NCBI GenBank assembly: GCA_003144275.1
Contig: NJBF01000022.1
Span: 30,001 to 62,000 of the forward strand
Source: Candidatus Heimdallarchaeota archaeon B3_Heim
Lineage (GTDB): Archaea; Asgardarchaeota; Heimdallarchaeia; Hodarchaeales; Hodarchaeaceae
Reading direction: 5' to 3'
DNA: 32,000 nucleotides
A program made the position numbers and the translations under genes. Of the stretch, positions 6,356-31,357 are shown piece by piece (position 1 is the stretch's first letter; each line of letters starts with the position of its first letter). The notes under the pieces are model-generated. The model was given only the letters and a program-made list of their open reading frames with translations. It did no database searches and was not told the DNA's origin.

Positions 6356-8689
6356 TTGAAGTTGTTTAATAAAGTAGTGGGAACTAGTATTCCGCGAGCA
6401 GATGCTCATGAAAAAGTTACCGGCACAGCTCTCTATATTGATGATTTACGTTTTCCTAGAACTTTAAAAATGAAAGTATTGAGGGCTGGTGTTCCTCATG
6501 CTATTATTAATTCAATTGAAATAAGTAAAGCCATAGATATGCCAGGAGTACATAAAGTATTCACTGGAAAATCTTTAAACTTAGATAAAAATCATTTGTT
6601 CGGAACCTGTATCTTTGATCAAGCACCATTAGCTATCGATAAGGTAAGGCATGCAGGTGAAATAGTAGCCGTCGTCATTGCAGAAACAGAAAAGCAAGCA
6701 TTAGCTGCTATTAAAAATATTGATGTAGACTTTAAAGAATTACCCTTTATTTTAGATCCAATAGAGGCCGTTGGTAAAGAAGCGCCCCTAATTCATGAAC
6801 AGAATGGTAAATATCATCATGTCCCTACATTTGTCCCAGAACCTCAGACAAATATATTTTACAAGTACCATCTCAAGAAAGGCGATTATGAGCATGTTTT
6901 CCAAGATGCAGAAATTACAGTAGAGGATAATTTTGAATACCCGCTAATGAACCACGCGGCTATTGAACCTCACGGTGCCATTGCACAATGGGATCATACA
7001 GGAGAACTACATCTATGGAGTAGTTCTCAAGCCCCGTTTGTACTCCGTGAGGTACTTGCTGATTACTTTAAAATAAAACAAATGATCAAGATACACATTC
7101 ATATTCCATACTTAGGCGGAGGTTTTGGAGGAAAAAGCGATTACACCATTGAACCTCTTGTTGCTTTAGCAGCACAATTAGTTCCAGGTTATCATGTTAA
7201 ATTCGTGCTTACTCGAAAAGAAGTCTTCATTGGATCAGTTTTGGGTCGAGGAATGAAAGGTCACATGAAACTAGGTGCAAAAAAGGATGGCACACTCGTT
7301 GGTATAGAAGCTACTCAATATTTTTCAGATGGAGCATATGGAGATACAGGGTGTAATGTAGTACTAGCTGCGGGTCATAACTGTGTGGGGCCATATTTTT
7401 TCCCTAAATGTAATCTCAAGTCTTTTGGTGTTTATACTAATTCTGCACCCGTAGGAGCTTTCCGTGGATACGGACATCCCGAAGGTCAATTTATGATTGA
7501 ACGATTATTGGAAAAGCTTGCCTTAAAGTTAGGAATGGAGTATGATGATTTAAGAATGAAAAACTTTCTACGTCCTGCCGATACGAATTCTCTTGGACAG
7601 ATCATCAATGAACATAACGGAGACATTAGAAAATGTTTTACTCAAACAATAACAAAACTTAATGAAATACCCCTCCCTCCTGAAGATGAAAGTTTTTTCT
7701 ATGGGCGTGCTGCTGTTGGACTTATTAAATCTCCAGTTCAAACCGCTAATGCCTCCTCGAATGTTTTTCTAAAATTCAATGAAGATCTTACTGTGAATAT
7801 TTCGACTGGTGGAGTTGAACTAGGACAGGGCAGTTTAACTGTACTTGCCCAAATTGCGGCTCAAACATTACACATTCCAGTAAGTAATATTAGAATCAAT
7901 TATGAGATAAATACGCAGTTAACTCCTTATGAATGGCAAACAGTAGCAAGTATGACCACAATGCGTGTTGGAAATGCAATAATATCTGCGTGTGAAAAAT
8001 CTATCACACAATTTAAGCAAAATGCGGCCCTAGTATGGGATTATGCTCTCAATGACATAGTATATGATGGCACCAAGGTAAGCTATCAGGATAGATTTCT
8101 AGATCTTAAAGAATTAGTGCTTGGCTATCAATACTCTGATGGACATACAGTAGGTAATCCTATCTTGACTACTGGTTCATCAGTTGTTCGCAATGTTACA
8201 TTTCCAGACTTAGAGACTGGACAATATCAGCCCTATGAGTGGACGTTCGGAAGTCAAGGTGTTGATCTAAAAATCAATAAGAAAACAGGAGAAATTACCA
8301 TTCTACATTTCGTGACGGCCCTTGATGCGGGAAAAGTTATTAATCCTGCTTTAGCACGCGGACAAGTCACCGGTGGAGTGATGCAAGGTATAGGCCAAGC
8401 GTTAAAAGAAAAAATTGTTTATGATGAATCAGGCAATATGACAACAACCAATCTACGGAGATATGCGATTCCTCGACTGTCTGACATGCCAGAGAAATTT
8501 AGTTGTATCTTTATTGAAACCCCCCAACCAGATGGGCCCTTTGGCGCACGTCCTATTGCAGAACATCCTGCGTTAGGCCCTCCCTCTGTCATTTTGAATG
8601 CAATACAGAGGGTTACTGGTATTTCCTTTACCAGTATTCCCGTAACTAAAGAACGGATGCTAAATGCATTGAAAGCAGGAGAAAAATAA
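6356..8689 (+). CDS. Xanthine dehydrogenase/aldehyde oxidase family molybdopterin-binding large subunit
   Basis: IPRADAHEKVTG, SSQAP, GGGFGGK, AFRGYG, ELGQG, GGVMQGIG and GPFGARPIAE (catalytic Glu position); TTG start. Confidence 0.93.
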   Translation: MKLFNKVVGTSIPRADAHEKVTGTALYIDDLRFPRTLKMKVLRAGVPHAIINSIEISKAIDMPGVHKVFTGKSLNLDKNHLFGTCIFDQAPLAIDKVRHAGEIVAVVIAETEKQALAAIKNIDVDFKELPFILDPIEAVGKEAPLIHEQNGKYHHVPTFVPEPQTNIFYKYHLKKGDYEHVFQDAEITVEDNFEYPLMNHAAIEPHGAIAQWDHTGELHLWSSSQAPFVLREVLADYFKIKQMIKIHIHIPYLGGGFGGKSDYTIEPLVALAAQLVPGYHVKFVLTRKEVFIGSVLGRGMKGHMKLGAKKDGTLVGIEATQYFSDGAYGDTGCNVVLAAGHNCVGPYFFPKCNLKSFGVYTNSAPVGAFRGYGHPEGQFMIERLLEKLALKLGMEYDDLRMKNFLRPADTNSLGQIINEHNGDIRKCFTQTITKLNEIPLPPEDESFFYGRAAVGLIKSPVQTANASSNVFLKFNEDLTVNISTGGVELGQGSLTVLAQIAAQTLHIPVSNIRINYEINTQLTPYEWQTVASMTTMRVGNAIISACEKSITQFKQNAALVWDYALNDIVYDGTKVSYQDRFLDLKELVLGYQYSDGHTVGNPILTTGSSVVRNVTFPDLETGQYQPYEWTFGSQGVDLKINKKTGEITILHFVTALDAGKVINPALARGQVTGGVMQGIGQALKEKIVYDESGNMTTTNLRRYAIPRLSDMPEKFSCIFIETPQPDGPFGARPIAEHPALGPPSVILNAIQRVTGISFTSIPVTKERMLNALKAGEK

Positions 8690-8690
8690 C

Positions 8691-9158
8691 ATGGAATTGA
8701 CGATAATAATAAACAAGAAAGACTATGCCTTCTCTGTTGATCCGTCTGACTCCTTGCTTAGTATTCTTCGTGAGCATCTCTCTTTGACAGGAACCAAAAA
8801 TGGTTGCAGTCAAGGCCACTGTGGGGCGTGCACAGTTGTTGTTAATGGAAAAGCCGTTAAAAGCTGTATTACTAAAGCCAAAAAATTAGAAAATGCCGAA
8901 GTTCTCACGATTGAGGGCGTATCGAGTAATTTTATTCTTCATGCAATTCAAGAGGCATTTATTGAAGCTACTGCTGTCCAATGTGGATTCTGTACCCCTG
9001 GGTATATTATGGAGTTATATGCTTTATTACAAGCTGACCCTGATGCGGAAAAAGAGGAGATTCATAAAGCTCTCGAAAAACATCTTTGTCGTTGCACAGG
9101 TTATCAGCCTATTATTGACGCAGCTTTACTTGCTCAAGAAAAGATTAAGAATTCATAG
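8691..9158 (+). CDS. (2Fe-2S)-binding small subunit of xanthine dehydrogenase family (CoxS/CutS-like)
   Basis: GTKNGCSQGHCGACTV, QCGFCTPG and LCRCTGY; starts 1 nt after the large-subunit stop. Confidence 0.93.
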   Translation: MELTIIINKKDYAFSVDPSDSLLSILREHLSLTGTKNGCSQGHCGACTVVVNGKAVKSCITKAKKLENAEVLTIEGVSSNFILHAIQEAFIEATAVQCGFCTPGYIMELYALLQADPDAEKEEIHKALEKHLCRCTGYQPIIDAALLAQEKIKNS

Positions 9159-9760: not shown

Positions 9761-10492
9761 TTGAGTATATTAGAAAAGATTCAGTCAATAAAAAGTCTTT
9801 ATATATTAATGGCTTTAGGTGCAGCTATCGGAATTATCTCTGGAATTGGAGCTACCTGTGTAACGTTTGATCCCAGATGGTGGAAAGTATCTGCTTTCTC
9901 CATTGTAGAAGATTATCAGATGGTTTGGATTATTTGCTATTTTGTCACGTGGTTAGTAGGTATATTATGGGTTGTTCTATATTGGGCATTGAAATCAGGA
10001 AAATCATGGTTCTATAAAGTTTCCATCGTTAATTGTATCTTGGGATTCTTTAGTGGGGCTATTCCCTCCTTGTTATTATTTTACGAAGATTGGGCGAGCT
10101 ATGGTGAGTCGGGAATGAAATTCACGCCTTCTTGGTTCCGAGCCATAGGAAATGTGATCATACTCCTAGTATTATTGCTACCCAAAATGAGAAGTAATCT
10201 TTCAACCCACATGGCTGAAAAAAGTGGAGCTGTTGGTGGAAGTATCGGTTCACAGGTAGCGAATTTTGCACTAGTAGTGTTAAGTTTCGGGGTTTTATTA
10301 ATTGTTCAACCAATCTTCATGCCAATGACACATCCAATAAATGCTGATGTATATATGTATACTGGTAACTGGCTGGAAGCATTCCAGTACTATGTTGGTT
10401 TATCCTCTATCGTGCTTGGAATTGTTCTACGATTTGTCGGGCAAATCTTGAACATCGTTTATTCTCCTAAACCATCCACTACAAATGTATAG
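9761..10492 (+). CDS. Uncharacterised membrane protein, about 6 TM helices
   Basis: Six hydrophobic segments, Trp-rich, FTPSWFR motif; TTG start uncertain; no family recognised. Confidence 0.7.
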   Translation: MSILEKIQSIKSLYILMALGAAIGIISGIGATCVTFDPRWWKVSAFSIVEDYQMVWIICYFVTWLVGILWVVLYWALKSGKSWFYKVSIVNCILGFFSGAIPSLLLFYEDWASYGESGMKFTPSWFRAIGNVIILLVLLLPKMRSNLSTHMAEKSGAVGGSIGSQVANFALVVLSFGVLLIVQPIFMPMTHPINADVYMYTGNWLEAFQYYVGLSSIVLGIVLRFVGQILNIVYSPKPSTTNV

Positions 10493-10566: not shown

Positions 10567-11034
10567 TCATTCGCATTCTCGTATCTGAAAAAGGTTTTTT
10601 GCTTCGTCAATATCGATAATAGGGACTGCATTATGAATGCAAGCAAATGATTTACATTTTTTAACCCCAATACCACCCCATTTAACGCCCCAACCTTTTA
10701 AAGCACTAAAAATAACAGCGAAATCTTCTCCTTTGTCAGTCAAAGAGTAACCAACACGAATGGGCATTTTTTCACTATGAACAAGTCGGTTAACAACCCC
10801 TTGTTCTTCTAATCGACTTAGACTTTCTGATAAAACACGTGCAGATATCTTCTCACTATAATGGCCAAGGATATGTTCTTGTAATTGGCTAAAATATAGT
10901 TCTTGGCACATCAATAATTCACAAATGACGTATAATGTCCATTTACGGCCTAAAATTTTCATTGCAAGGCTAGCTGCACATTCATCAGGTTCTGTTTCAT
11001 TCATAGTGGTGTTCAACAAAAATTGATCAGTCAT
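10567..11034 (-). CDS. HxlR/DUF24 (MarR-type) winged-helix transcriptional regulator
   Basis: CAASLAMKILGRKWTLYVI...ISARVLSESLSRLEEQGVVNR...VGYSLTDKG; N-terminal Cys19 lies in the usual sensor position. Confidence 0.9.
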   Translation of the reverse strand: MTDQFLLNTTMNETEPDECAASLAMKILGRKWTLYVICELLMCQELYFSQLQEHILGHYSEKISARVLSESLSRLEEQGVVNRLVHSEKMPIRVGYSLTDKGEDFAVIFSALKGWGVKWGGIGVKKCKSFACIHNAVPIIDIDEAKNLFQIRECE

Positions 11035-11181: not shown

Positions 11182-11345
11182 TTTATTCCCGAAAACTTAT
11201 TTCCTTGCTTTCTTTTGTCTCTTTGATTCACGCAAAGATTAAAAACGCAGTCTCAGTAATATTAAGCTCGCGTGTAAAAATCTCGAGCAAATTTAACTTT
11301 TTACACAAAAATAATTCTAACAATAGAAATATTGAGTTGAAAGTC

Positions 11346-12020
11346 ATGTCATTACTAGAAACTGATTTGATTGGAGCAATTGTGCTCCTAGTTGTAGGTA
11401 TTGTGGCGATTGTATTAGCCCTCTTACTACTGAAGGAATACCTTGCTTCCAAGAAAATGTATCATTTAGCCTGGGCACTTAGCTTTTTAGTTCTTTTTAT
11501 CTCGGGTGTTTTGATTATTTTCCTTGGATGGACTGATACTTTAGAAAATCCACTTGTCCCTCCTGTGGCTGCATTGATCCCAGCAGGTCTAGCTATAGGG
11601 CTTCTTTATGCAGTCTTTGAAGAGAAACAATATGGATTTTATTATGCAATATATTCTCTAGTATTGATTGCTATTTTAGCAGTCATTAAATTAATGGAGC
11701 TAGACTTTGCATCTTTTGTTTTAATGGGTGTTCACATTCCCTCTGGGTTGATAATATCATTTCTACCAGTATACACAGCATTTACTAAAGAAACAGAATG
11801 GACAAGTATATTCTTTGGAATTGGTGGTTTACTGATTTCATTTGGCGGCGTTTTGCTCGCCTTCGCAACAGTAGAAGGAATGGAAGCAATTTTGCCATTT
11901 GAGGATATTCTTGTTATCTTACCGTTCTTATTACTCGTCGTTGGAGTATTCTTTGCCCTCGGAATCGGTATTCCATCAAAATGGAAAGTGGAAATACCTG
12001 TAATAAGTGATTTGTTCTAG
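11346..12020 (+). CDS. Uncharacterised 7-TM membrane protein
   Basis: Seven hydrophobic segments from MSLLETDLIG. The first 47 codons of the listed ORF (from 11205) look non-coding, so the ATG at 11346 is preferred. Two His residues (MYH, GVH). Confidence 0.75.
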   Translation: MSLLETDLIGAIVLLVVGIVAIVLALLLLKEYLASKKMYHLAWALSFLVLFISGVLIIFLGWTDTLENPLVPPVAALIPAGLAIGLLYAVFEEKQYGFYYAIYSLVLIAILAVIKLMELDFASFVLMGVHIPSGLIISFLPVYTAFTKETEWTSIFFGIGGLLISFGGVLLAFATVEGMEAILPFEDILVILPFLLLVVGVFFALGIGIPSKWKVEIPVISDLF

Positions 12021-12031
12021 GTGAATAAACA

Positions 12032-13627
12032 ATGAATGTAGAAAATTCTTCTGACTCAAAAATGGATTGGTTAAAGAGAAAGATAAATTACGGTGCTACC
12101 TACAAAGGTATGATTACTTTTACGGTTGTCTGGCTTTTTGTAATAATACTATTTTTATCTACATTTTCTGAACCAATCGAGCTTATACTCGGTCAACCTT
12201 TATTGCCAATCTCATTATCTGCTGAGGCAGTTGACAGAGCAGGCCGCATTATAATACTTTACCATAGCATAGCGGTACCAGTTGTTGCAGTATGCACATA
12301 TTTTGTATTAATGTTAATGGATGTCCGTGAAAAGTTCAAATCAAGAGTGAAATGGCCCCTGTTCCTTGGAAGTATCTTAACTTCAGCCAGCGGTATATTG
12401 TTTGCCTATATCTTTCCTGATCAATGGATTTTACATGGTCTATACTTAGTTGGGCTATCATTATGTTTCTATGCAGGAATCATGCTTCTGCTTGGGGTTT
12501 TTCCAACCAAATCCTTTCCGAAACGAGATGCGGACAACAGTCGAAATGTTGTTTTAGGTCAATCCGCAGTGACACTCCTAACTTTCTGTATTTTACTGAG
12601 TGTTATTCTTGGAGGGGCGATAGGATCCTTTTTCGGAAATGGTTTACTTCCCTTACTTGCAGAGTACTTCCTTCGACCTTATGACCATGATAAATACCCA
12701 GAACTCTTCGTAGATGCTATTAAAGCACATTTACACATTATGTTAGCACTTATTGACGTAATTATTTTACTAGTTGTCTATCGATATACTGTACCAGACC
12801 AAAAAGGAAAATGGTATCGAATCTCGATGATTCTTGCTATGCCAGGTATGTTAATTATGTCAATAGGATCTTGGGCTGTTACGTTTAATTCAGTGGTTGT
12901 CTATCCTTTTGATATGCATTACTTGATTTATGTTGGTGCTGCCATTCTTGTGACCGTTGGCCTAATTTTGGCATTAACGGGCTGGAATAAAATGAGTAAA
13001 AAAGCTCTTGGTGATAACTATGAATCTGCGTCATGGTTTGCTCGGTCTAAGGCTGTTTTCAGTGATCCTGTGAAATTTACGCTTTACTTTCAGCTAATAT
13101 GGGTAAATTTCGTAATGACTTTTGGCGGAATATTCCTAGCCCTCAGTCTCCGTGGACCGACTGACCCAGAAGGAGAATCTCCATTCACAAAAGTGCTTGA
13201 TATAGTAGCTTTTCGAGATGGACCCTTAGCAGTTGAAACTACAGTTGCAAGGGGTCATTGGCACATCTTAGCCACATTATCTGCAATCATGTTGGTACTT
13301 CTACTGACTGATGTTCTAAATATACAGGGCACTACCCGAAAGGTGATGGGTTGGCTGTCATTTGCAGGTAATATTGTCGCATTTGGTCTTGGAATGATAT
13401 ATTTGTATTATCCTCACTTTGATCAAGACTGGGCGGTGAATTTGAATAAGTATGTAGATGTTAGAGAGTTTTGGGCGGACCAAAAATTATTCGGGTTTGG
13501 AAATTGGCTTCCCCTTGTGATGGATTTTGGAATAATGCTTCTTATTATCGTAATAACAATTTTCTGCTTCCACCAGTTAATTCAGATAATAAAAGGTAGA
13601 CATGATGTCAAACAATGGCCAGAGTGA
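12032..13627 (+). CDS. 12-TM His-rich membrane protein, putative heme-binding (heme-copper oxidase subunit I / heme A synthase-like)
   Basis: Twelve hydrophobic segments in three 4-TM repeats; His78 (TM2), His135 (TM4), H233-L-H235 (TM6), His296 (TM8), H409-W-H411 (TM10); GGTGA SD at 12020-12024. The CDS is solid but the function is inferred. Confidence 0.7.
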   Translation: MNVENSSDSKMDWLKRKINYGATYKGMITFTVVWLFVIILFLSTFSEPIELILGQPLLPISLSAEAVDRAGRIIILYHSIAVPVVAVCTYFVLMLMDVREKFKSRVKWPLFLGSILTSASGILFAYIFPDQWILHGLYLVGLSLCFYAGIMLLLGVFPTKSFPKRDADNSRNVVLGQSAVTLLTFCILLSVILGGAIGSFFGNGLLPLLAEYFLRPYDHDKYPELFVDAIKAHLHIMLALIDVIILLVVYRYTVPDQKGKWYRISMILAMPGMLIMSIGSWAVTFNSVVVYPFDMHYLIYVGAAILVTVGLILALTGWNKMSKKALGDNYESASWFARSKAVFSDPVKFTLYFQLIWVNFVMTFGGIFLALSLRGPTDPEGESPFTKVLDIVAFRDGPLAVETTVARGHWHILATLSAIMLVLLLTDVLNIQGTTRKVMGWLSFAGNIVAFGLGMIYLYYPHFDQDWAVNLNKYVDVREFWADQKLFGFGNWLPLVMDFGIMLLIIVITIFCFHQLIQIIKGRHDVKQWPE

Positions 13628-13669: not shown

Positions 13670-14611
13670 ATGACAAACATTGACTCCCCAGATCAACTAC
13701 AGGCATATGAACAAGCATCGATTGCCACTACCACGACCACACCATATTTCCTTTATGGAGAACTGATTAAAAGTAAGCAAACATTCTTGTTAGTTTATAC
13801 AACCTTTTTTGCTTACTTAATTAGTGCGTGGTCGACTGGTTTTGACTTGAATGTATTCCTGTGGTTGAATGTGGGGGTCTTTTTTGCAATCTCGGGAAGT
13901 ACATTATTGAATATGTATATTGATCGAGATATTGATGCACTAATGGAAAGAACAAGAGATCGTCCACTACCTATGGGAAAGATTTCACCCGGGACGGTTC
14001 TTCGCCACGGTCTACTTTTCACATTTACTGGTCTTCTAGCAATAGCAATATTTGTGGACTACTTGACATTGACTGTCGTCTTTCTTGGTGCCTTTTTTGA
14101 TGTAGTTGTTTATTCACTCTTATTAAAACGTAGAACTCGATATTCCATCATTTTTGGAGGAATTGCGGGTGGTTTACCAGCACTAGCTGGATCTACTGCA
14201 GCATCAGCATCGATAACTTCAGCTGGTCTTTTAATGGGTTTGTTTGTTCTTTGTTGGATTCCTTTGCATATTTTAACTCTTGCATTGCTTCCAAAGAACT
14301 TAGAAGGTTATCAAAAAGCACAAATTCCCATGTGGCCCGTAATTCGAAGTAAAACTCAAACAATACAAGTTATTACATTGTCAGCTATTCTGAGCACTGT
14401 ACTGATTGCACTAACAGGAATTGTATTGAATATTCGGCTATTACCTCTATTACCATTATTTGCATTCTGCATCTATATGATATGGCTCTCGGTTTTAAAC
14501 CTCAGAAAACCAACACAAGTTCGTACATTTAGGATCTTTAAGCTTGCATCAATGCTGATGGCATTCGCATTTTTCTGGCTCTTATTAGGAGTAATTGTAT
14601 CTCCGTACTAG
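13670..14611 (+). CDS. cyoE: Protoheme IX farnesyltransferase (heme O synthase, UbiA superfamily)
   Basis: NMYIDRDIDALMERTRDRPLPMGKI, YSLLLKRRT, GGIAGGLPALAG, WIPLH and YQKAQIPMWPV are the CyoE/CtaB/COX10 motifs. Confidence 0.92.
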   Translation: MTNIDSPDQLQAYEQASIATTTTTPYFLYGELIKSKQTFLLVYTTFFAYLISAWSTGFDLNVFLWLNVGVFFAISGSTLLNMYIDRDIDALMERTRDRPLPMGKISPGTVLRHGLLFTFTGLLAIAIFVDYLTLTVVFLGAFFDVVVYSLLLKRRTRYSIIFGGIAGGLPALAGSTAASASITSAGLLMGLFVLCWIPLHILTLALLPKNLEGYQKAQIPMWPVIRSKTQTIQVITLSAILSTVLIALTGIVLNIRLLPLLPLFAFCIYMIWLSVLNLRKPTQVRTFRIFKLASMLMAFAFFWLLLGVIVSPY

Positions 14612-16132: not shown

Positions 16133-17614
16133 TTAACCAAAGATCAGTGACTTAATAACAACTGGAAAAACCCGATCTTCAAAAAGTGGCTTCCCACAAT
16201 CAATGAAATCTCCTTCCTTTACCGAAATTTCGTCCAGAGAAAGAATTTCATTCGTAATACCTGTTTCTCGTTTCAATACATTTCCAACAGAGTTTCCGAT
16301 ATCCGTTTGAAATACTAGAAAGATAGGTTTGTCTTCCTGAACAGACTTGGGTAATCCTTTTACAATTCCAAGTGAAAAAATTGTCAATTTATCATAAACA
16401 GATCGAACAGGGTCAATGAACGCAAGAACAAAATTGCTTTCCCCTTCTATAATATCCATTCTCTTCAGTGAGTTTTGAATCTGGTGTGCGACATAATCGA
16501 TTGATAATTGATTTCGATCGATTTGGGGAATTACTACAGGTAAATTGCGGATTGGAAGATCAATTTTACTCCGGTCTTTTGAAATGAATGTTGTAGAACC
16601 ACTTACATTTAATGTATGCCCGCTTGCGCCAATAACAGTTGCTCGTATCTTTTCTGGAGTTTCAATCCGCTCAAAAGCATGTTTTGCTAAGAGAGATCGA
16701 ATTTGTGTTCCTAATATTTTACCAAGATCATTAAATTCTTGGTCAGTTTTACTATAGATATATTCAGCAACTCCACCTGAGAAACTGACTGCAGGGTTGT
16801 TATTATAACTTTCAAGAGGAAGATTTTCAGTCATCATAAGTTCTTGGGTAAGATTAGAAAGTTCTTTTCCTTTTAAGACCTCTAAAAGTGAGTGAGCCAA
16901 CTTTTCACTCACAAGTGCTTTTTCTTCCAGAGTTAATTTATCACCTAACCTCTGAGAAAGATTGCATGCCTCCAAAACCGAACTACCTGCAGGTTCCAGT
17001 CGAATAATCTCATCAGCATCATTAAATGCAAGTAATCTACCACCAACATTGATACAAGCTGTCGCAGTAATAATTCCATTTTCAATAACAGCAATATTAG
17101 AGGTTCCCCCACCAACATCTGTATGAATAATCTTTTTGCCATGGCTTTCAGAAAAAGTCACTGCACCTGAGCCGTATGCAGATATCATTGATTCAAAATT
17201 CGGTCCAGCCGTGCTTGCAACAAAATTGCCTAATTCGGCTTCTTTTGCTAAGAACTGAACAATTTTTTCGGCATTTTTACGTTTTGCTGCCTCTCCAGTA
17301 ATAATGACTGCACCAGATTCAATAGTTGCGGGATTAATATTCGCTTTCTGGTATTCTCTTAAAAGGGCGGGAAGTAATTGGTCAATGTCTATTTCATTAG
17401 AGGAAAGTAGGGGTGTGAAAATTATATCACCACGATATTTGATTATACGCTCTGAAACATAAAATTTCTCGGTATTAGATGATGGATCCTTTTTAAGTAC
17501 TAATTCCGAAAAAACTAAATGAGAAGTACTAGTTCCAACATCTACCCCAACAGAATTCATTCGTTTCTCTGCAACTCTAATTGTCATTAATAATTTGGCT
17601 TCCTGTATTTCCAT
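16133..17614 (-). CDS. eutA: EutA-family ethanolamine ammonia-lyase reactivating factor (ASKHA-fold ATPase)
   Basis: SVGVDVGTSTSHLVFSEL, GAVIITGEAA, TAGPNFES, DVGGGTSN, CINVGGRL, FSGGVA, IRATVIGAS and C-terminal PVVIKSLIF. Start may be the ATG at 17587. Confidence 0.88.
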   Translation of the reverse strand: MEIQEAKLLMTIRVAEKRMNSVGVDVGTSTSHLVFSELVLKKDPSSNTEKFYVSERIIKYRGDIIFTPLLSSNEIDIDQLLPALLREYQKANINPATIESGAVIITGEAAKRKNAEKIVQFLAKEAELGNFVASTAGPNFESMISAYGSGAVTFSESHGKKIIHTDVGGGTSNIAVIENGIITATACINVGGRLLAFNDADEIIRLEPAGSSVLEACNLSQRLGDKLTLEEKALVSEKLAHSLLEVLKGKELSNLTQELMMTENLPLESYNNNPAVSFSGGVAEYIYSKTDQEFNDLGKILGTQIRSLLAKHAFERIETPEKIRATVIGASGHTLNVSGSTTFISKDRSKIDLPIRNLPVVIPQIDRNQLSIDYVAHQIQNSLKRMDIIEGESNFVLAFIDPVRSVYDKLTIFSLGIVKGLPKSVQEDKPIFLVFQTDIGNSVGNVLKRETGITNEILSLDEISVKEGDFIDCGKPLFEDRVFPVVIKSLIFG

Positions 17615-22637: not shown

Positions 22638-25600
22638 CTAGTGGAAACGGAAATGAACTTGGGGTAATGAGATTACTCCTCGCTCGGTCAATCGTACACC
22701 ACATATTGGACACTCGTTCCTAATCTTAACACTCTGAAGTAAGTGACGGCGATGAAAAAAGCTGGAACATTGCGTACATTCAACTAAATCAACATCGGTC
22801 GTTGTTACGACACTTTTAAGGCAAATTGCGCATGTTAGTCGTTGCGTACAGAATCCACAATTTTTTTGTTTCTCTAAAACAGGATTATTACATTTAGGGC
22901 AATTAGATTGATAACTAGATTGTTTAGGTAATTCTGTAGTTGTTTTAAGAGTACTTTTATAGATTTCTTTAAGACCTGAACTCCACATGTGGAATATTGT
23001 CTGTGGGGAATCAATCTCGAAGCGTTTGATAAATTTGTTTATTGCCAGAGAATATTCTAGTTCGAATTCTCCCTGTTCAGGTAGCTCCATGAGAAATGGT
23101 AAATTTATCCATGAACAGTACTCTCCTATTAACGGTAGAATAGCGCGTTTTATCTCAGCTCTTTGTGATTGTTGATATAGAGAGATGTAGTATTTTTCTG
23201 GCTCAGAAGGTGGTCTTTTAGCAAATCGGGTTGTTAACGCGCTAATAGTAGAATCTTCAGAGATATTAATTGAAGGATCTGAAAGGACGTAATCTAATGA
23301 GTCTTGAGGCAGTTTAGTAAAATATGCACTGAGTAAGGACTCACGTACAGATAAATGCGAGTCATTTAATATGGTCAATATTCTAATATCGTCCTCTATT
23401 GATCTTCCTACAGCTTGCTTTATGAGAGCTGATAAAAGAGCTTGACCTTCATCTGAGAATTTTTTTGTCTGATCATTAGTAATAATATCTCGAATCAGCT
23501 TATAATCATTTGTTGGCCCTCTGAGACGTGAGAGACATTGATCAACAAGAACTGGTCTTAAACTTTTTGTTTTCAGACCTGGGATAATATATTTGAGTAA
23601 GATACCAAATTTCTTTTCTGATAATTTATTGGTATAGTTCCCAACAGAGATTGCAAGGGAGGAAAGATTGTGATCATCAATATTCTCAATAGTTACTCTT
23701 GGATATTTACCAATTATTTGGTTAAAGAGGTTTTCAACGAACAATCTCAAATTTACATCAGTATTAAGCTTGGTAAGACGAATTAATACAAGATACAGGA
23801 GTTTTTTCGGGTTTAAGTCAAGAATTGATAGAATTAACGGTTCGATATTCTTATGATTCAACAATGCAGGGTCCCGAATTGAGAGTATTGCATAGAGCAT
23901 CTGGCTACTCTTGGTTGAAAAATCGGGGATGATATATTTCTGGATGTAGGAAGAATGATTCCTTGGTAATGATATGACAATCTCCCCTAAAATTGGTATA
24001 CTCTTATTAAATACATGTTTTATTAAGATCTTATATTTAGGTAAGCTTTTACTTGATATAGAGGAGATATTTTGCCAGAATTTCACGATGTCGATGTCAA
24101 TAAGTTTCTTTGTAATTTTCAATAACGTCTCTGTATTTTTTTTGGTTTTTTTTTCAAATTTGTTCAAAAATAGAGGTAATACTTCATTTGGACGAAGTAA
24201 AAATACTCTTTCCCATGAGGTGATTAGAGTTTTTTCGAATCCTACTCTAGAAACGAGTTTTTCAATATCAGTATTACTCAGTTCACTAGCAATAATATTC
24301 ATAGGAAACGAAATTTTACTACTAATTTGTATTATTTCATCAAAATGATCCTTAAAGTGGATCTTCAGATAGCTAGCTAAGCTGGTATAGACTGTTGACT
24401 CAATAGGTTGAGAAGTAGTGAGTAATGGAAGAAAATAATTAAAATTTTGGTATAAATAACCAATATGAGAAATATATTTATTTTTTATTAAGTAATTGCT
24501 GATATTACCCACTGTTTTTGCATCAAAACTTTCTAGAAGTCGAGATACTCGTTTTCTTCTAGTGTAATATTGTTGTTGGATGATTTGCTCTATTAACTTT
24601 TTCCATTGAGTTGTTTTTAGGGAATTGAGTGAAGGACGGAGTATGTTCTGAATATTTGTATCTTTGGTTTGAAAATAAGAATCGATTACTCGTTTTATAT
24701 CGAGTGTAGAGTAATTCTGAAATTCTGAAGTAAAGAATTGTGCATATTTGTTTAGATCCTTTTCGAGAAGTGTGAGAAGGAAAAAAAGATAGTCAATTCC
24801 GTGAGAGTCTTTTTGTGCATCTAAATATTTCAATATTGATGATGCGCTTGTAAACAGTAAAGATTCAAGTGTATCAGATAGGAAAGAAATTTCTTTTTCA
24901 GTTTCATGACGGGTAATTTGAGAAAAGTAGGCGATAATTAATGGGTTTGTTTGTGTTTGTTGTTTAAGAGAGACTGCATTTAAAATTGCACCATTCGTTA
25001 GGTTTTTTGATACAAGCCATTCAATAAATTGTTGCTGTGCTTTATTGGAAGAATTACTGAACCTATGAATCAGAAAAGTAAGCTCCTCACGTGAACTATC
25101 AAATATTTTTAAAAAGATCGGTATCTTTTGAGGAGAAATCTTATTTGGTAGATTTTCGGATGAGCAAGCATTAATTAAATTGTCTTTAGAAACTTCTCGA
25201 AAAAGTGGGAGTATTAGATCAGTGGGTTGTTTCATGTAGCTCTGTAAGATAAGATATAATACTCTAACATCACATTTTACCCAAAGGATTAATAATTCAA
25301 TAAGATCCATATTTTTATTCTTAACTGCCGTTCTATAAGCTTCTTCACTTAATTTCGGATTAAACTGACCCAGTATTCCTTTGGTTATCGATTTATTACA
25401 CATTCCCCAGTTCTCAATTAACTTGTTTAAGAACATCTCCTGTACCTCCATTTCAAGTGCAAGTATTGAATCAAGAAATGCTGTGTTTGTAAATACGCTT
25501 AATAAATGATTAAATCGGTCTGGGTTCAACTCATCAAGATGATTCAAAATATGTGCTAAGCTTTGAGGTAATAATTGTTCAAAACCATATATCATCTGTT

Positions 25601-25796
25601 TAGTTTCATTATTTTCCCGAAAATTATCGAAAAAAATTCTTATGGCGTGATCAGGACTCTCCTTTACTAGATTATTGATTTTCTTTTTCCATATAAACGG
25701 TACTCGTCCAAAAGAAATCTTTTCATAATCAGATTTTTCCATTGCAGTCATTAGTCCTGATATCACTATGAAGTCTGGGTAATCATTTGTACTCAA
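22638..25796 (-). CDS. Large helical (alpha-solenoid-like) protein with C-terminal Zn finger plus RING-type domain
   Basis: 1052 aa, Leu/Ile-rich amphipathic segments with no TM or enzyme motif; C-terminal CxxC-x10-CxxC-x5-CxxC-x14-CxxC-x4-HxxH-x10-CxxC at 22901-22701. Confidence 0.8.
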   Translation of the reverse strand: MSTNDYPDFIVISGLMTAMEKSDYEKISFGRVPFIWKKKINNLVKESPDHAIRIFFDNFRENNETKQMIYGFEQLLPQSLAHILNHLDELNPDRFNHLLSVFTNTAFLDSILALEMEVQEMFLNKLIENWGMCNKSITKGILGQFNPKLSEEAYRTAVKNKNMDLIELLILWVKCDVRVLYLILQSYMKQPTDLILPLFREVSKDNLINACSSENLPNKISPQKIPIFLKIFDSSREELTFLIHRFSNSSNKAQQQFIEWLVSKNLTNGAILNAVSLKQQTQTNPLIIAYFSQITRHETEKEISFLSDTLESLLFTSASSILKYLDAQKDSHGIDYLFFLLTLLEKDLNKYAQFFTSEFQNYSTLDIKRVIDSYFQTKDTNIQNILRPSLNSLKTTQWKKLIEQIIQQQYYTRRKRVSRLLESFDAKTVGNISNYLIKNKYISHIGYLYQNFNYFLPLLTTSQPIESTVYTSLASYLKIHFKDHFDEIIQISSKISFPMNIIASELSNTDIEKLVSRVGFEKTLITSWERVFLLRPNEVLPLFLNKFEKKTKKNTETLLKITKKLIDIDIVKFWQNISSISSKSLPKYKILIKHVFNKSIPILGEIVISLPRNHSSYIQKYIIPDFSTKSSQMLYAILSIRDPALLNHKNIEPLILSILDLNPKKLLYLVLIRLTKLNTDVNLRLFVENLFNQIIGKYPRVTIENIDDHNLSSLAISVGNYTNKLSEKKFGILLKYIIPGLKTKSLRPVLVDQCLSRLRGPTNDYKLIRDIITNDQTKKFSDEGQALLSALIKQAVGRSIEDDIRILTILNDSHLSVRESLLSAYFTKLPQDSLDYVLSDPSINISEDSTISALTTRFAKRPPSEPEKYYISLYQQSQRAEIKRAILPLIGEYCSWINLPFLMELPEQGEFELEYSLAINKFIKRFEIDSPQTIFHMWSSGLKEIYKSTLKTTTELPKQSSYQSNCPKCNNPVLEKQKNCGFCTQRLTCAICLKSVVTTTDVDLVECTQCSSFFHRRHLLQSVKIRNECPICGVRLTERGVISLPQVHFRFH

Positions 25797-26103
25797 AAAG
25801 TTAGCGATATAGGGTTGTTAATAATAAGTTATTATACTTGTGTATTTCGAGGCAATATTAGAGATGTCTACGGGCTCTTTTATGCTAATGGTATATAAAT
25901 TAAACACATTTATTCATAAAAGTCTTTCTTCTAGTTTGATAATGTATTACAAGCTATTAAACTTAACAAGAATTCAAAAAGAGGATTGGGAATATACCGT
26001 GACATCCTGAAGAGATTCTGGAAAGGATTATGGTTAAGCTATTCACTTAGTTAGATGATGCAAAATTGTTAAAAGCAACCCATCTTTCTTTTTTCAATGT
26101 ATT

Positions 26104-30246: not shown

Positions 30247-30445
30247 AAATTCAAAATCTTTTGTTTAACTTTTATCGTTTCCATCTTTGTTGATTTTAGC
30301 AGTAATTAAGTAGAATGAAGACAAAAAATTATGTCCTGCGGATATTTTGTCGAGAATTATTTATTATTAGTTGAGCCTTTATTTTTCATGTAGAATTTCC
30401 CTGAATAAGGCGATAACTGGGATAAATTCTCTAGGTGTCTGGCGG

Positions 30446-31357
30446 ATGACATTACTTTCAGTCAAGGTGTTTGATGATGCGAATGAAGAAATTGTCTCTA
30501 CAATTTCTGTCACTCCTGATAATTGTCAGACTTCTGCTTCTTTACCAGCCATTCGTAGGCTATTACTTCAGAATAATAATACTCAACCTATTCAAGGGTG
30601 GGTTTGTGGAGACAAGCTCCTAGCCTTTTCATATTTAAATTCACAAAAAGTACTTTTGCTTGCCATTGCCAGTAAAAATACTTCTTTCTCAAAACTTCAA
30701 TCTTTTCTAGAATTATTAGGAAAATCCTACAAGCCAGGACTATTTGAAAAACATCAGCCTTCTTTCCAAAAAGATTTTCAGGACATCTGTGATTCTGTTG
30801 TTAGAATGGTGGATTCCTCAACGACACTAAGTATTTCATTATTAGGACTCGCTCGTTCGGGAAAGACAACTTTCATTCAACAACATATAATCGAACAGCA
30901 ACTAGCAGGCTTTAATTCGTATAAACCAACAAGACTAGTTAACATCGTATCACATGAAAGGTCTACACCCAGTCCACATATACGTTTTTACGACCTTGGA
31001 ATGGCTTTCCAACAACATTGGTGGAAATTTAGTACAGAGTCAGATGGTTATATTTTCTTTGTAGATATCTCAGATAATCGGTCTATTAATGCCTCAAAAG
31101 AATTATTAGAGGAAATTCGTAACTTTTGGGATTTGCCATATGTGATTGCTGCTAATAAAATTGATATTGGCTCCATCAAGAATGTGAGAAGATATCTTTC
31201 TAGGAAATTACTTGTACCTATTCGATTGATTTACGAAACTGAATCCGTAACAGGAGTTGGCTTCGATCCTTTACTTGAGGGGATGCTTTCAGAGATTCAT
31301 AAGAACAGATCTTATTCCTCAATTATTCAGCCTCAGCCGACGAAGAACGAATTCTAA
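30446..31357 (+). CDS. Arf/Sar-like small GTPase fused to an N-terminal longin-like domain
   Basis: G1 GLARSGKT (30845-30868), G2 KPT, G3 DLGM (30992-31003), DGYIFFVD, G4 NKID (31154-31165), G5 ESVTG; about 125-aa N-terminal alpha/beta domain. ATG at 30446 has upstream AGGTG/GGCGG. Confidence 0.8.
   Translation: MTLLSVKVFDDANEEIVSTISVTPDNCQTSASLPAIRRLLLQNNNTQPIQGWVCGDKLLAFSYLNSQKVLLLAIASKNTSFSKLQSFLELLGKSYKPGLFEKHQPSFQKDFQDICDSVVRMVDSSTTLSISLLGLARSGKTTFIQQHIIEQQLAGFNSYKPTRLVNIVSHERSTPSPHIRFYDLGMAFQQHWWKFSTESDGYIFFVDISDNRSINASKELLEEIRNFWDLPYVIAANKIDIGSIKNVRRYLSRKLLVPIRLIYETESVTGVGFDPLLEGMLSEIHKNRSYSSIIQPQPTKNEF

Follow-up and report, generated by a model that had tools for sequence, protein, structure and literature searches.

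In this study we analysed a 32,000-nucleotide stretch of the genome of Candidatus Heimdallarchaeota archaeon B3_Heim (contig NJBF01000022.1, positions 30,001 to 62,000; the window), in which an open reading frame (ORF) at 12032-13627 on the forward strand encodes a protein of 531 residues, hereafter T. T is a protein with 12 transmembrane (TM) helices and the pseudo-threefold fold of subunit I of the haem-copper oxidases (HCOs), it retains the positions of the haem ligands, and its gene is followed by a gene for a probable haem O synthase (CyoE). We propose, with a probability of roughly 60%, that T is the catalytic subunit of an undescribed and deeply divergent branch of the HCO fold, which uses haem O from the co-transcribed CyoE. 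T is thus likely to act in anaerobes as a redox enzyme that depends on haem O and has not been described before, rather than as a haem A synthase.

An AlphaFold2 (AF2) model of T, which was built on an alignment of its relatives, was confident (mean predicted local distance difference test score, pLDDT, 90; predicted template modelling score, pTM, 0.90). The model placed helices 1-6 at residues 24-43, 66-95, 100-127, 132-156, 170-198, and 224-253, and helices 7-12 at residues 260-285, 296-329, 346-371, 399-428, 433-463, and 492-521. Seven His residues were found in TM2 (H78), TM4 (H135), TM6 (H233 and H235), TM8 (H296), and TM10 (H409 and H411). A first-pass annotation, which was made from the DNA letters, had described twelve helices, quoted strings from them, and assigned the seven His residues to these positions and helices, all of which agrees with the ORF translation and the AF2 model. 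Reading of the sequence showed that the loops after TM2, 4, 6, 8, and 10 as well as both termini are rich in Lys and Arg. This pattern indicates that the termini are inside and that, as in HCO subunit I, the seven His residues lie in the outward half of the membrane.

A word-indexed search returned 681 relatives of T, all of which are annotated as hypothetical. T is 40-94% identical to relatives from Hodarchaeales, Heimdallarchaeia, and Hermod-, Thor-, and Odinarchaeota, and many relatives from Chloroflexota are about 491 residues long with about 30% identity. T had no match in Pfam or NCBIfam, and neither phmmer with T alone nor hmmsearch with a profile of 46 sequences gave an informative match among PDB sequences. 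In 46 relatives with identities down to 30%, the seven His residues are invariant together with R72, Y77, Y126, E211, R251, W281, R395, E402, W410, R436, and W441. When 121 sequences from Asgard archaea, bacteria, and distant representatives were compared, each of the seven His residues was kept in 117-121 of them, which is far above chance (H78 in 121, H409 in 120, and H411 in 119), and Y77 and Y126 were near-invariant. The conservation of the His residues, to which the first-pass annotation had tied its proposal, was therefore borne out. A maximum-likelihood tree of the 121 sequences separated the Asgard from the bacterial T proteins by one fully supported branch. The window stretch itself occurred in small shares in marine sediment and cold seep DNA runs, and no RNA run was listed.

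T is colinear with HCO subunit I across all 12 helices. Global alignment by hhalign paired H78 with the helix II His of COX1, the GHWH motif of TM10 (409-411) with GHFH of helix X, and W281-A-V-T with W-x-H-H of helix VII. At the level of single 4-TM units, TM9-12 of T aligned with HCO helices IX-XII with the HxH motif in register (E 8.6e-4), and the unit-level signals between T and COX1 were E 1.6e-4 and 8.6e-4. The positions of the low-spin haem ligands (the helix II His and the second His of the helix X HxH) are kept in T as H78 and H411, and the proximal position of the high-spin haem (the first His of this HxH) is kept as H409. TM6 carries H233-x-H235 in place of the canonical single helix VI His, and H296 opens TM8. 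The alignments and the 121 sequences thus agree with an earlier description of T as having the HCO helix II His and helix X HxH and lacking the helix VII HH. When distant relatives of T were scanned for COX1 in search of a family that bridges T and COX1, no match was obtained.

The internal repeat of T was also detected by hhalign, with E 3e-6 for TM1-4 against TM9-12 and E 2e-6 for TM5-8 against TM9-12, compared with a background of E 0.2-0.4 for unrelated TM profiles in this test. The repeat alignments paired H78, H235, and H411 with one another, H233 with H409, and H135 with H296. The three 4-TM repeats claimed in the first-pass annotation are thus real at the profile level but are not special to T, because canonical Asgard COX1 showed its own repeat in the same test (h1 versus h3, E 2.5e-8). 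The repeat is therefore a property of the superfamily and no sign of greater ancestrality of T. The idea that T is closer to the ancestral triplicated unit was rejected, since the repeat is also detectable in canonical Asgard COX1.

Several observations weigh against T being an HCO-type catalytic subunit. T and 31 family members had no match to PF00115 (COX1) at E 0.1, and whole-protein hhalign of T against an alignment of 21 Asgard COX1 sequences gave a probability of 4-9%; the sequence signal is found at the unit level only. The helix VII HH pair (CuB/FeB) is V283/T284 in T, and neither position was His in any of the 121 sequences. Four residues after the TM6 His there is M237 and no Tyr. 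Y300, which lies four residues past H296, is Tyr in only 71 of the 121 sequences and Asn in 32, so that canonical O2-reductase chemistry is not assured. In addition, the cassette of genes around T in the window contains no subunit II partner of the HCO type, either cupredoxin or cytochrome c, and no copper chaperone. A relocated His-Tyr cross-link between H296 and Y300 was considered and rejected, because Tyr is present in only 59% of the sequences and is not a family feature.

The cassette in the window contains, on one strand, the gene at 11346-12020, the T gene, and cyoE, which are separated by gaps of 11 and 42 nt. The product of cyoE (13670-14611, forward strand) is a UbiA prenyltransferase of the CyoE/CtaB/COX10 type (PF01040, E 1.5e-44), as the first-pass annotation had proposed for this neighbour. 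Its score with TIGR01473 was 204.9 bits, just under the equivalog cut-off of 210.3. This score and the lack of significant whole-protein similarity between T and COX1 would be in line with a different reading, in which the resemblance to HCOs is convergent or a relic, T binds no haem, and the UbiA protein prenylates a different substrate. The scores with other UbiA subfamilies were 53 bits at most, the gene is the sole haem O synthase candidate (the only strong match) in its genome, which is 94% complete, and we consider this reading extremely unlikely. The genome has a single canonical COX1 on another contig, and cyoE lies beside T, not beside COX1. In a genome of the same genus (G190, contig C13, 26829-28840), two tandem copies of window-type cyoE are located next to T, and a third copy is present elsewhere in the genome.

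The distribution of these genes was examined in 201 Asgard genomes, of which related ones are not independent. T was found in 30 genomes, window-type cyoE in 33, both in 29, canonical COX1 in 13, and CtaA in 7. The pattern of T and cyoE extends to at least eight families. T accompanies the window-type haem O synthase in 29 genomes, as against 9 for COX1, and 22 of the 30 T-positive genomes, several of which are 95-100% complete, have no PF00115 match. The gene next to T is cyoE in 24 of the 30 Asgard loci, with T identities down to 29%. The sole genome with T alone retains a T remnant of 62 residues. This closed genome (G074, contig C1, 790950-791138; locus L039) has no window-type cyoE, which looks like a joint loss of the pair.

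Since a gene that adjoins cyoE is reminiscent of ctaA-ctaB pairs, T could be an enzyme that modifies haem O, such as a haem A synthase unlike CtaA or another tailoring oxidase that acts on the CyoE product. The B3_Heim genome would suit this assignment, as it has a canonical COX1 and, at 94% completeness, no PF02628 CtaA. T is likewise present in five of the six Asgard genomes that have COX1 without a CtaA match, although four of these five belong to one genus, and the His residues of T lie in the second and fourth helices of repeated 4-TM units, at spacings that the first-pass annotation described as similar to those of B. subtilis CtaA. However, the colinearity with HCO subunit I extends over 12 helices, so that this fold covers the whole of T, and in 22 of the T-positive Asgard genomes there is no COX1 that could use haem A. 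T and CtaA were found together in three genomes (G102, G036, and G166). CtaA was not among the best 50 of 48,161 chains in a fold search, by which a family not listed there is not excluded. Moreover, hhalign of the whole T family and of each 4-TM unit against six Asgard CtaAs gave E 0.2-0.4, which equals the background, and the Cys loop and E-x-x-H-R motif of the Asgard CtaAs are absent from T, as had been noted before. In the AF2 model, H135 and H296 appear to be less deeply placed than the His residues of TM2 and TM6, by about 8-10 residues, which would make them unsuited to CtaA-style bis-His ligation within one bundle. With no profile similarity, no CtaA motifs, and an HCO fold, a kinship of T with CtaA was rejected, and the haem A synthase assignment is very unlikely. 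The first-pass annotation had offered an HCO-fold protein and an alternative haem A synthase as two possibilities, of which the former was supported and the latter was not, and its suggestion that T links the CtaA and HCO folds structurally is not supported either.

The gene at 11346-12020 (forward strand), which is directly upstream of T, encodes a 7-TM membrane protein (cluster 2) of 224 residues from the ATG at 11346, and its ORF extends to a TTG at 11205. This protein had no Pfam match, and its family alignment showed one invariant His, H130. Members of the family were present in 43 of 80 loci and were often located directly upstream of T in both Asgard archaea and bacteria. An Atlas model of the protein resembled generic 7-TM bundles of the sensor type (TM-score 0.66). 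Prediction of a complex of T with this protein gave a score of 0.00, which counts neither for nor against binding. A regulator of the HxlR family with a winged helix (10567-11034, reverse strand; PF01638, E 2.9e-17) is divergently transcribed. HxlR homologues lie beside T in many Asgard loci, including the Thorarchaeota locus L002, and it is likely that the regulator controls the cassette in Asgard archaea. A NrfA-like multihaem cytochrome c and a cytochrome c assembly protein of 741 residues are encoded just upstream of HxlR, T, and cyoE in L002 (1-5562). Another polytopic membrane protein of 243 residues (cluster 3) is encoded at 9761-10492 on the forward strand. It had no significant Pfam match, and a structure search in the Atlas was uninformative. 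Its homologues were present in 35 of the 80 loci as well as in Asgard loci, and those in bacteria are located downstream of cyoE.

When bacteria were scanned with one genome per species, at least 590 species genomes had a T relative. Chloroflexota accounted for most of them, and the other carriers included Aminicenantes, Symbiobacteriaceae and other Bacillota, Desulfuromonadaceae, Spirochaetota, Bacteroidota, and one metagenome-assembled genome labelled Methanosarcinales. Clustering of the neighbours over 80 further loci revealed cyoE in 67 of them, always on the same strand and downstream of T, so that the co-localisation of T with cyoE, which the first-pass annotation had made a condition of its reading, was also seen in most of these loci. 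A typical bacterial operon starts with a Crp/Fnr regulator, which is followed in some cases by two multihaem cytochromes c, and continues with a 7-TM protein of the same family as that of 11346-12020 and with T. These genes are followed by a lipoprotein with the sulfatase fold of the formylglycine-generating enzyme (FGE), cyoE, and a second copy of the 7-TM protein, and the operon ends with a protein of about 150 residues with hydrophobic and probably membrane-spanning segments and a member of the family of 9761-10492. Two of the five bacterial genomes examined had no COX1-family gene.

In some bacteria, an FGE-sulfatase-fold domain is fused to the C-terminus of T, resulting in proteins of 729-785 residues (L147, 10001-12358; L089; L122). 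These fusions indicate that the two proteins act together in bacteria. The FGE-fold lipoprotein lacks the FGE cysteine pair, and its conserved Cys residues are only the lipobox Cys, C158, and that of the C-terminal GFRC. It follows that this partner cannot act as a formylglycine-generating enzyme, nor does it provide evidence for copper. We therefore rejected as unsupported the idea that the lipoprotein is a NirV/FGE-like copper chaperone that marks a copper site in T. In an Anaerolineaceae locus (L001, 11250-13135), the cassette is followed at a distance of 1.8 kb by three small genes on the opposite strand. The product of one of them, with 133 residues, had a weak match to the COX1 Pfam family, and a Crp regulator and a hemerythrin gene are nearby.

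The partners of T also bear on whether it reduces a small molecule at all. T might bind haem O as a chaperone or transporter, as a redox or gas sensor, or as a module for electron transfer between the membrane and the periplasm. Such a role would be consistent with the lack of the canonical catalytic metal ligands and the apparent lack of the catalytic Tyr, with the regulators that flank the cassette, and with the odd partners, namely a generic 7-TM bundle like the TM domains of sensor kinases and an FGE-fold protein without the FGE Cys pair. On the other hand, Asgard archaea and bacteria share, in addition to the haem ligands, four near-invariant His residues and several near-invariant Glu, Arg, Tyr, and Trp residues, and these suit a catalytic site better than a carrier. 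T has no output domain that a sensor would need, and the presence of multihaem cytochromes c in some operons suggests that electrons are delivered to a terminal site. The putative ligands all appear to lie at one membrane depth, which argues against a transmembrane wire. A role without small-molecule reduction is thus rather unlikely.

From the fold, the conserved His residues, the gene linkage, and the phyletic coupling to haem O synthase, we infer the cofactors, the subunit contacts, and the substrate of T as a divergent HCO-type catalytic subunit as follows. By analogy with known HCOs, H78 in TM2 and H411 in TM10 would be the ligands of a low-spin haem, and H409 in TM10 would be the ligand of a prenylated high-spin haem close to the outer face. 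In place of the canonical CuB/FeB triad, T would have H233 and H235 of TM6 together with H135 and H296, which open TM4 and TM8, respectively, and which with E211 and E402 are predicted to face the active-site region. This rebuilt set of His and Glu residues may hold a non-canonical metal or a further haem. Candidates to stand in for CuB are H235 or H233 and H296, whereas H135 and the remaining TM6 His might by symmetry form a second site. CyoE supplies haem O for E. coli cytochrome bo3, and the CyoE encoded in the operon would likewise supply the cofactor of T. The conserved 7-TM and 6-TM proteins are probable partners of T. In bacteria, the outward-facing FGE-fold lipoprotein would take the place of a cupredoxin or cytochrome c subunit II. 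Electrons could be provided by multihaem cytochromes c in some bacteria, and by quinol or another donor in Asgard archaea. T most likely serves anaerobes and microaerophiles by reducing a small oxidant (O2 or NO), either to scavenge it or to respire it. The Crp/Fnr and HxlR regulators, the multihaem cytochromes, and the anaerobic hosts suggest the reduction of O2, NO, or a similar molecule, and the choice of substrate is a guess.

A more specific arrangement can be imagined, in which T is a copper-free relative of the respiratory oxidases with three cofactors. The HxH motifs of TM6 and helix X would then mirror each other. One TM6 His would face the usual active-site pore, the other would be a ligand of an additional haem or metal in a pore that all known HCOs leave empty, and H135 and H296 would be symmetric distal residues. 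Such an arrangement would explain why lineages that have no oxidase retain a haem O synthase, and it would represent a new catalytic architecture in the HCO fold that is used by anaerobes including Asgard archaea. We regard it as doubtful.

Several other genes in the window are described here for completeness. A molybdenum enzyme of the xanthine dehydrogenase/aldehyde oxidase type, with a hammerhead domain and two domains that bind the molybdenum cofactor, is encoded at 6356-9158 on the forward strand and is followed by an ORF of 155 residues with Cys motifs of the 2Fe-2S type. This region lies 0.6 kb upstream of the first cassette gene at 9761. Xdh has been discussed as a possible aerotolerance factor in Hodarchaeales (10.1101/2025.02.26.640444). 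The product of the gene at 16133-17614 (reverse strand) resembles EutA of the ethanolamine ammonia-lyase reactivase family (E 1.6e-132). Its occurrence in this archaeon may be related to the microcompartment genes reported in Hodarchaeales. The 1052-residue protein of 22638-25796 (reverse strand) had only a weak match to a RING-finger at its C-terminus (E 3e-4), and its gene overlaps the stretch of the window with the lowest GC content (0.30 at 24001-26000). Finally, a protein of 328 residues encoded at 30371-31357 (forward strand) consists of an N-terminal extension of about 145 residues and a C-terminal small GTPase domain of the Arf/Ras type, a type common among the eukaryote-like signature proteins of Asgard archaea.

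Haem O synthase genes of Asgard archaea have been read as markers of oxygen metabolism that are tied to cytochrome oxidase (10.1101/2024.07.04.601786; 10.1101/2025.02.26.640444). However, in the sample of 201 genomes, most carriers of window-type cyoE have no COX1, and this gene tracks T far better than COX1. If T reduces O2 or NO, the closest archaeal relatives of eukaryotes and hundreds of species of anaerobic bacteria would possess an enzyme for handling oxidants that has been overlooked. In that case, reconstructions of metabolism in which COX and COX10 are used to deduce aerobiosis or its absence would change, and an HCO-fold enzyme without canonical copper ligands would bear on the evolution of the oxidase active site.

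The cbb3 oxidases and cNOR contain haem B only, whereas T is proposed to depend on its own haem O synthase. Their catalytic subunits CcoN and NorB (PDB 3MK7, 3O0R, and 4XYD) are "minimal" HCO catalytic subunits with 12 TM helices. In comparison with them, T shows no detectable whole-protein similarity and no PF00115 match, it has V/T for the helix VII HH, an additional HxH in TM6, and conserved His residues at the starts of TM4 and TM8, and it lacks a cytochrome c partner such as CcoO/CcoP or NorC. In contrast to the A- and B-family oxygen reductases, such as bo3 (CyoB, with cyoE in the same operon) and ba3 (CbaA, PDB 1EHK/3S8F), T has neither the CuB triad nor the helix VI H-x3-Y, is not accompanied by homologues of subunit II or III, and occurs mostly in anaerobes without a canonical HCO. 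CtaA/COX15 (PF02628) resembles T in being a membrane protein with His residues in alternate helices of repeated 4-TM units, the gene of which often adjoins ctaB/cyoE, but T differs from it in the fold assignment and in a phyletic pattern that is independent of COX1. The families eNOR, sNOR, gNOR, nNOR, NOD, and a putative N2O reductase are divergent HCOs with altered active sites and no cross-linked Tyr, for which NO reduction was suggested on the basis of sequence and context (Murali et al. 2024, PMC11214002). Sequence similarity within the HCO superfamily led to the discovery of these families, and a subunit II of the CuA type is retained in four of them, whereas T is invisible to COX1 profiles and has other partners. 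A literature search found no published description of the T family or of its cassette. T is a very divergent and newly recognised variant within the known HCO fold superfamily, with the putative function proposed above.
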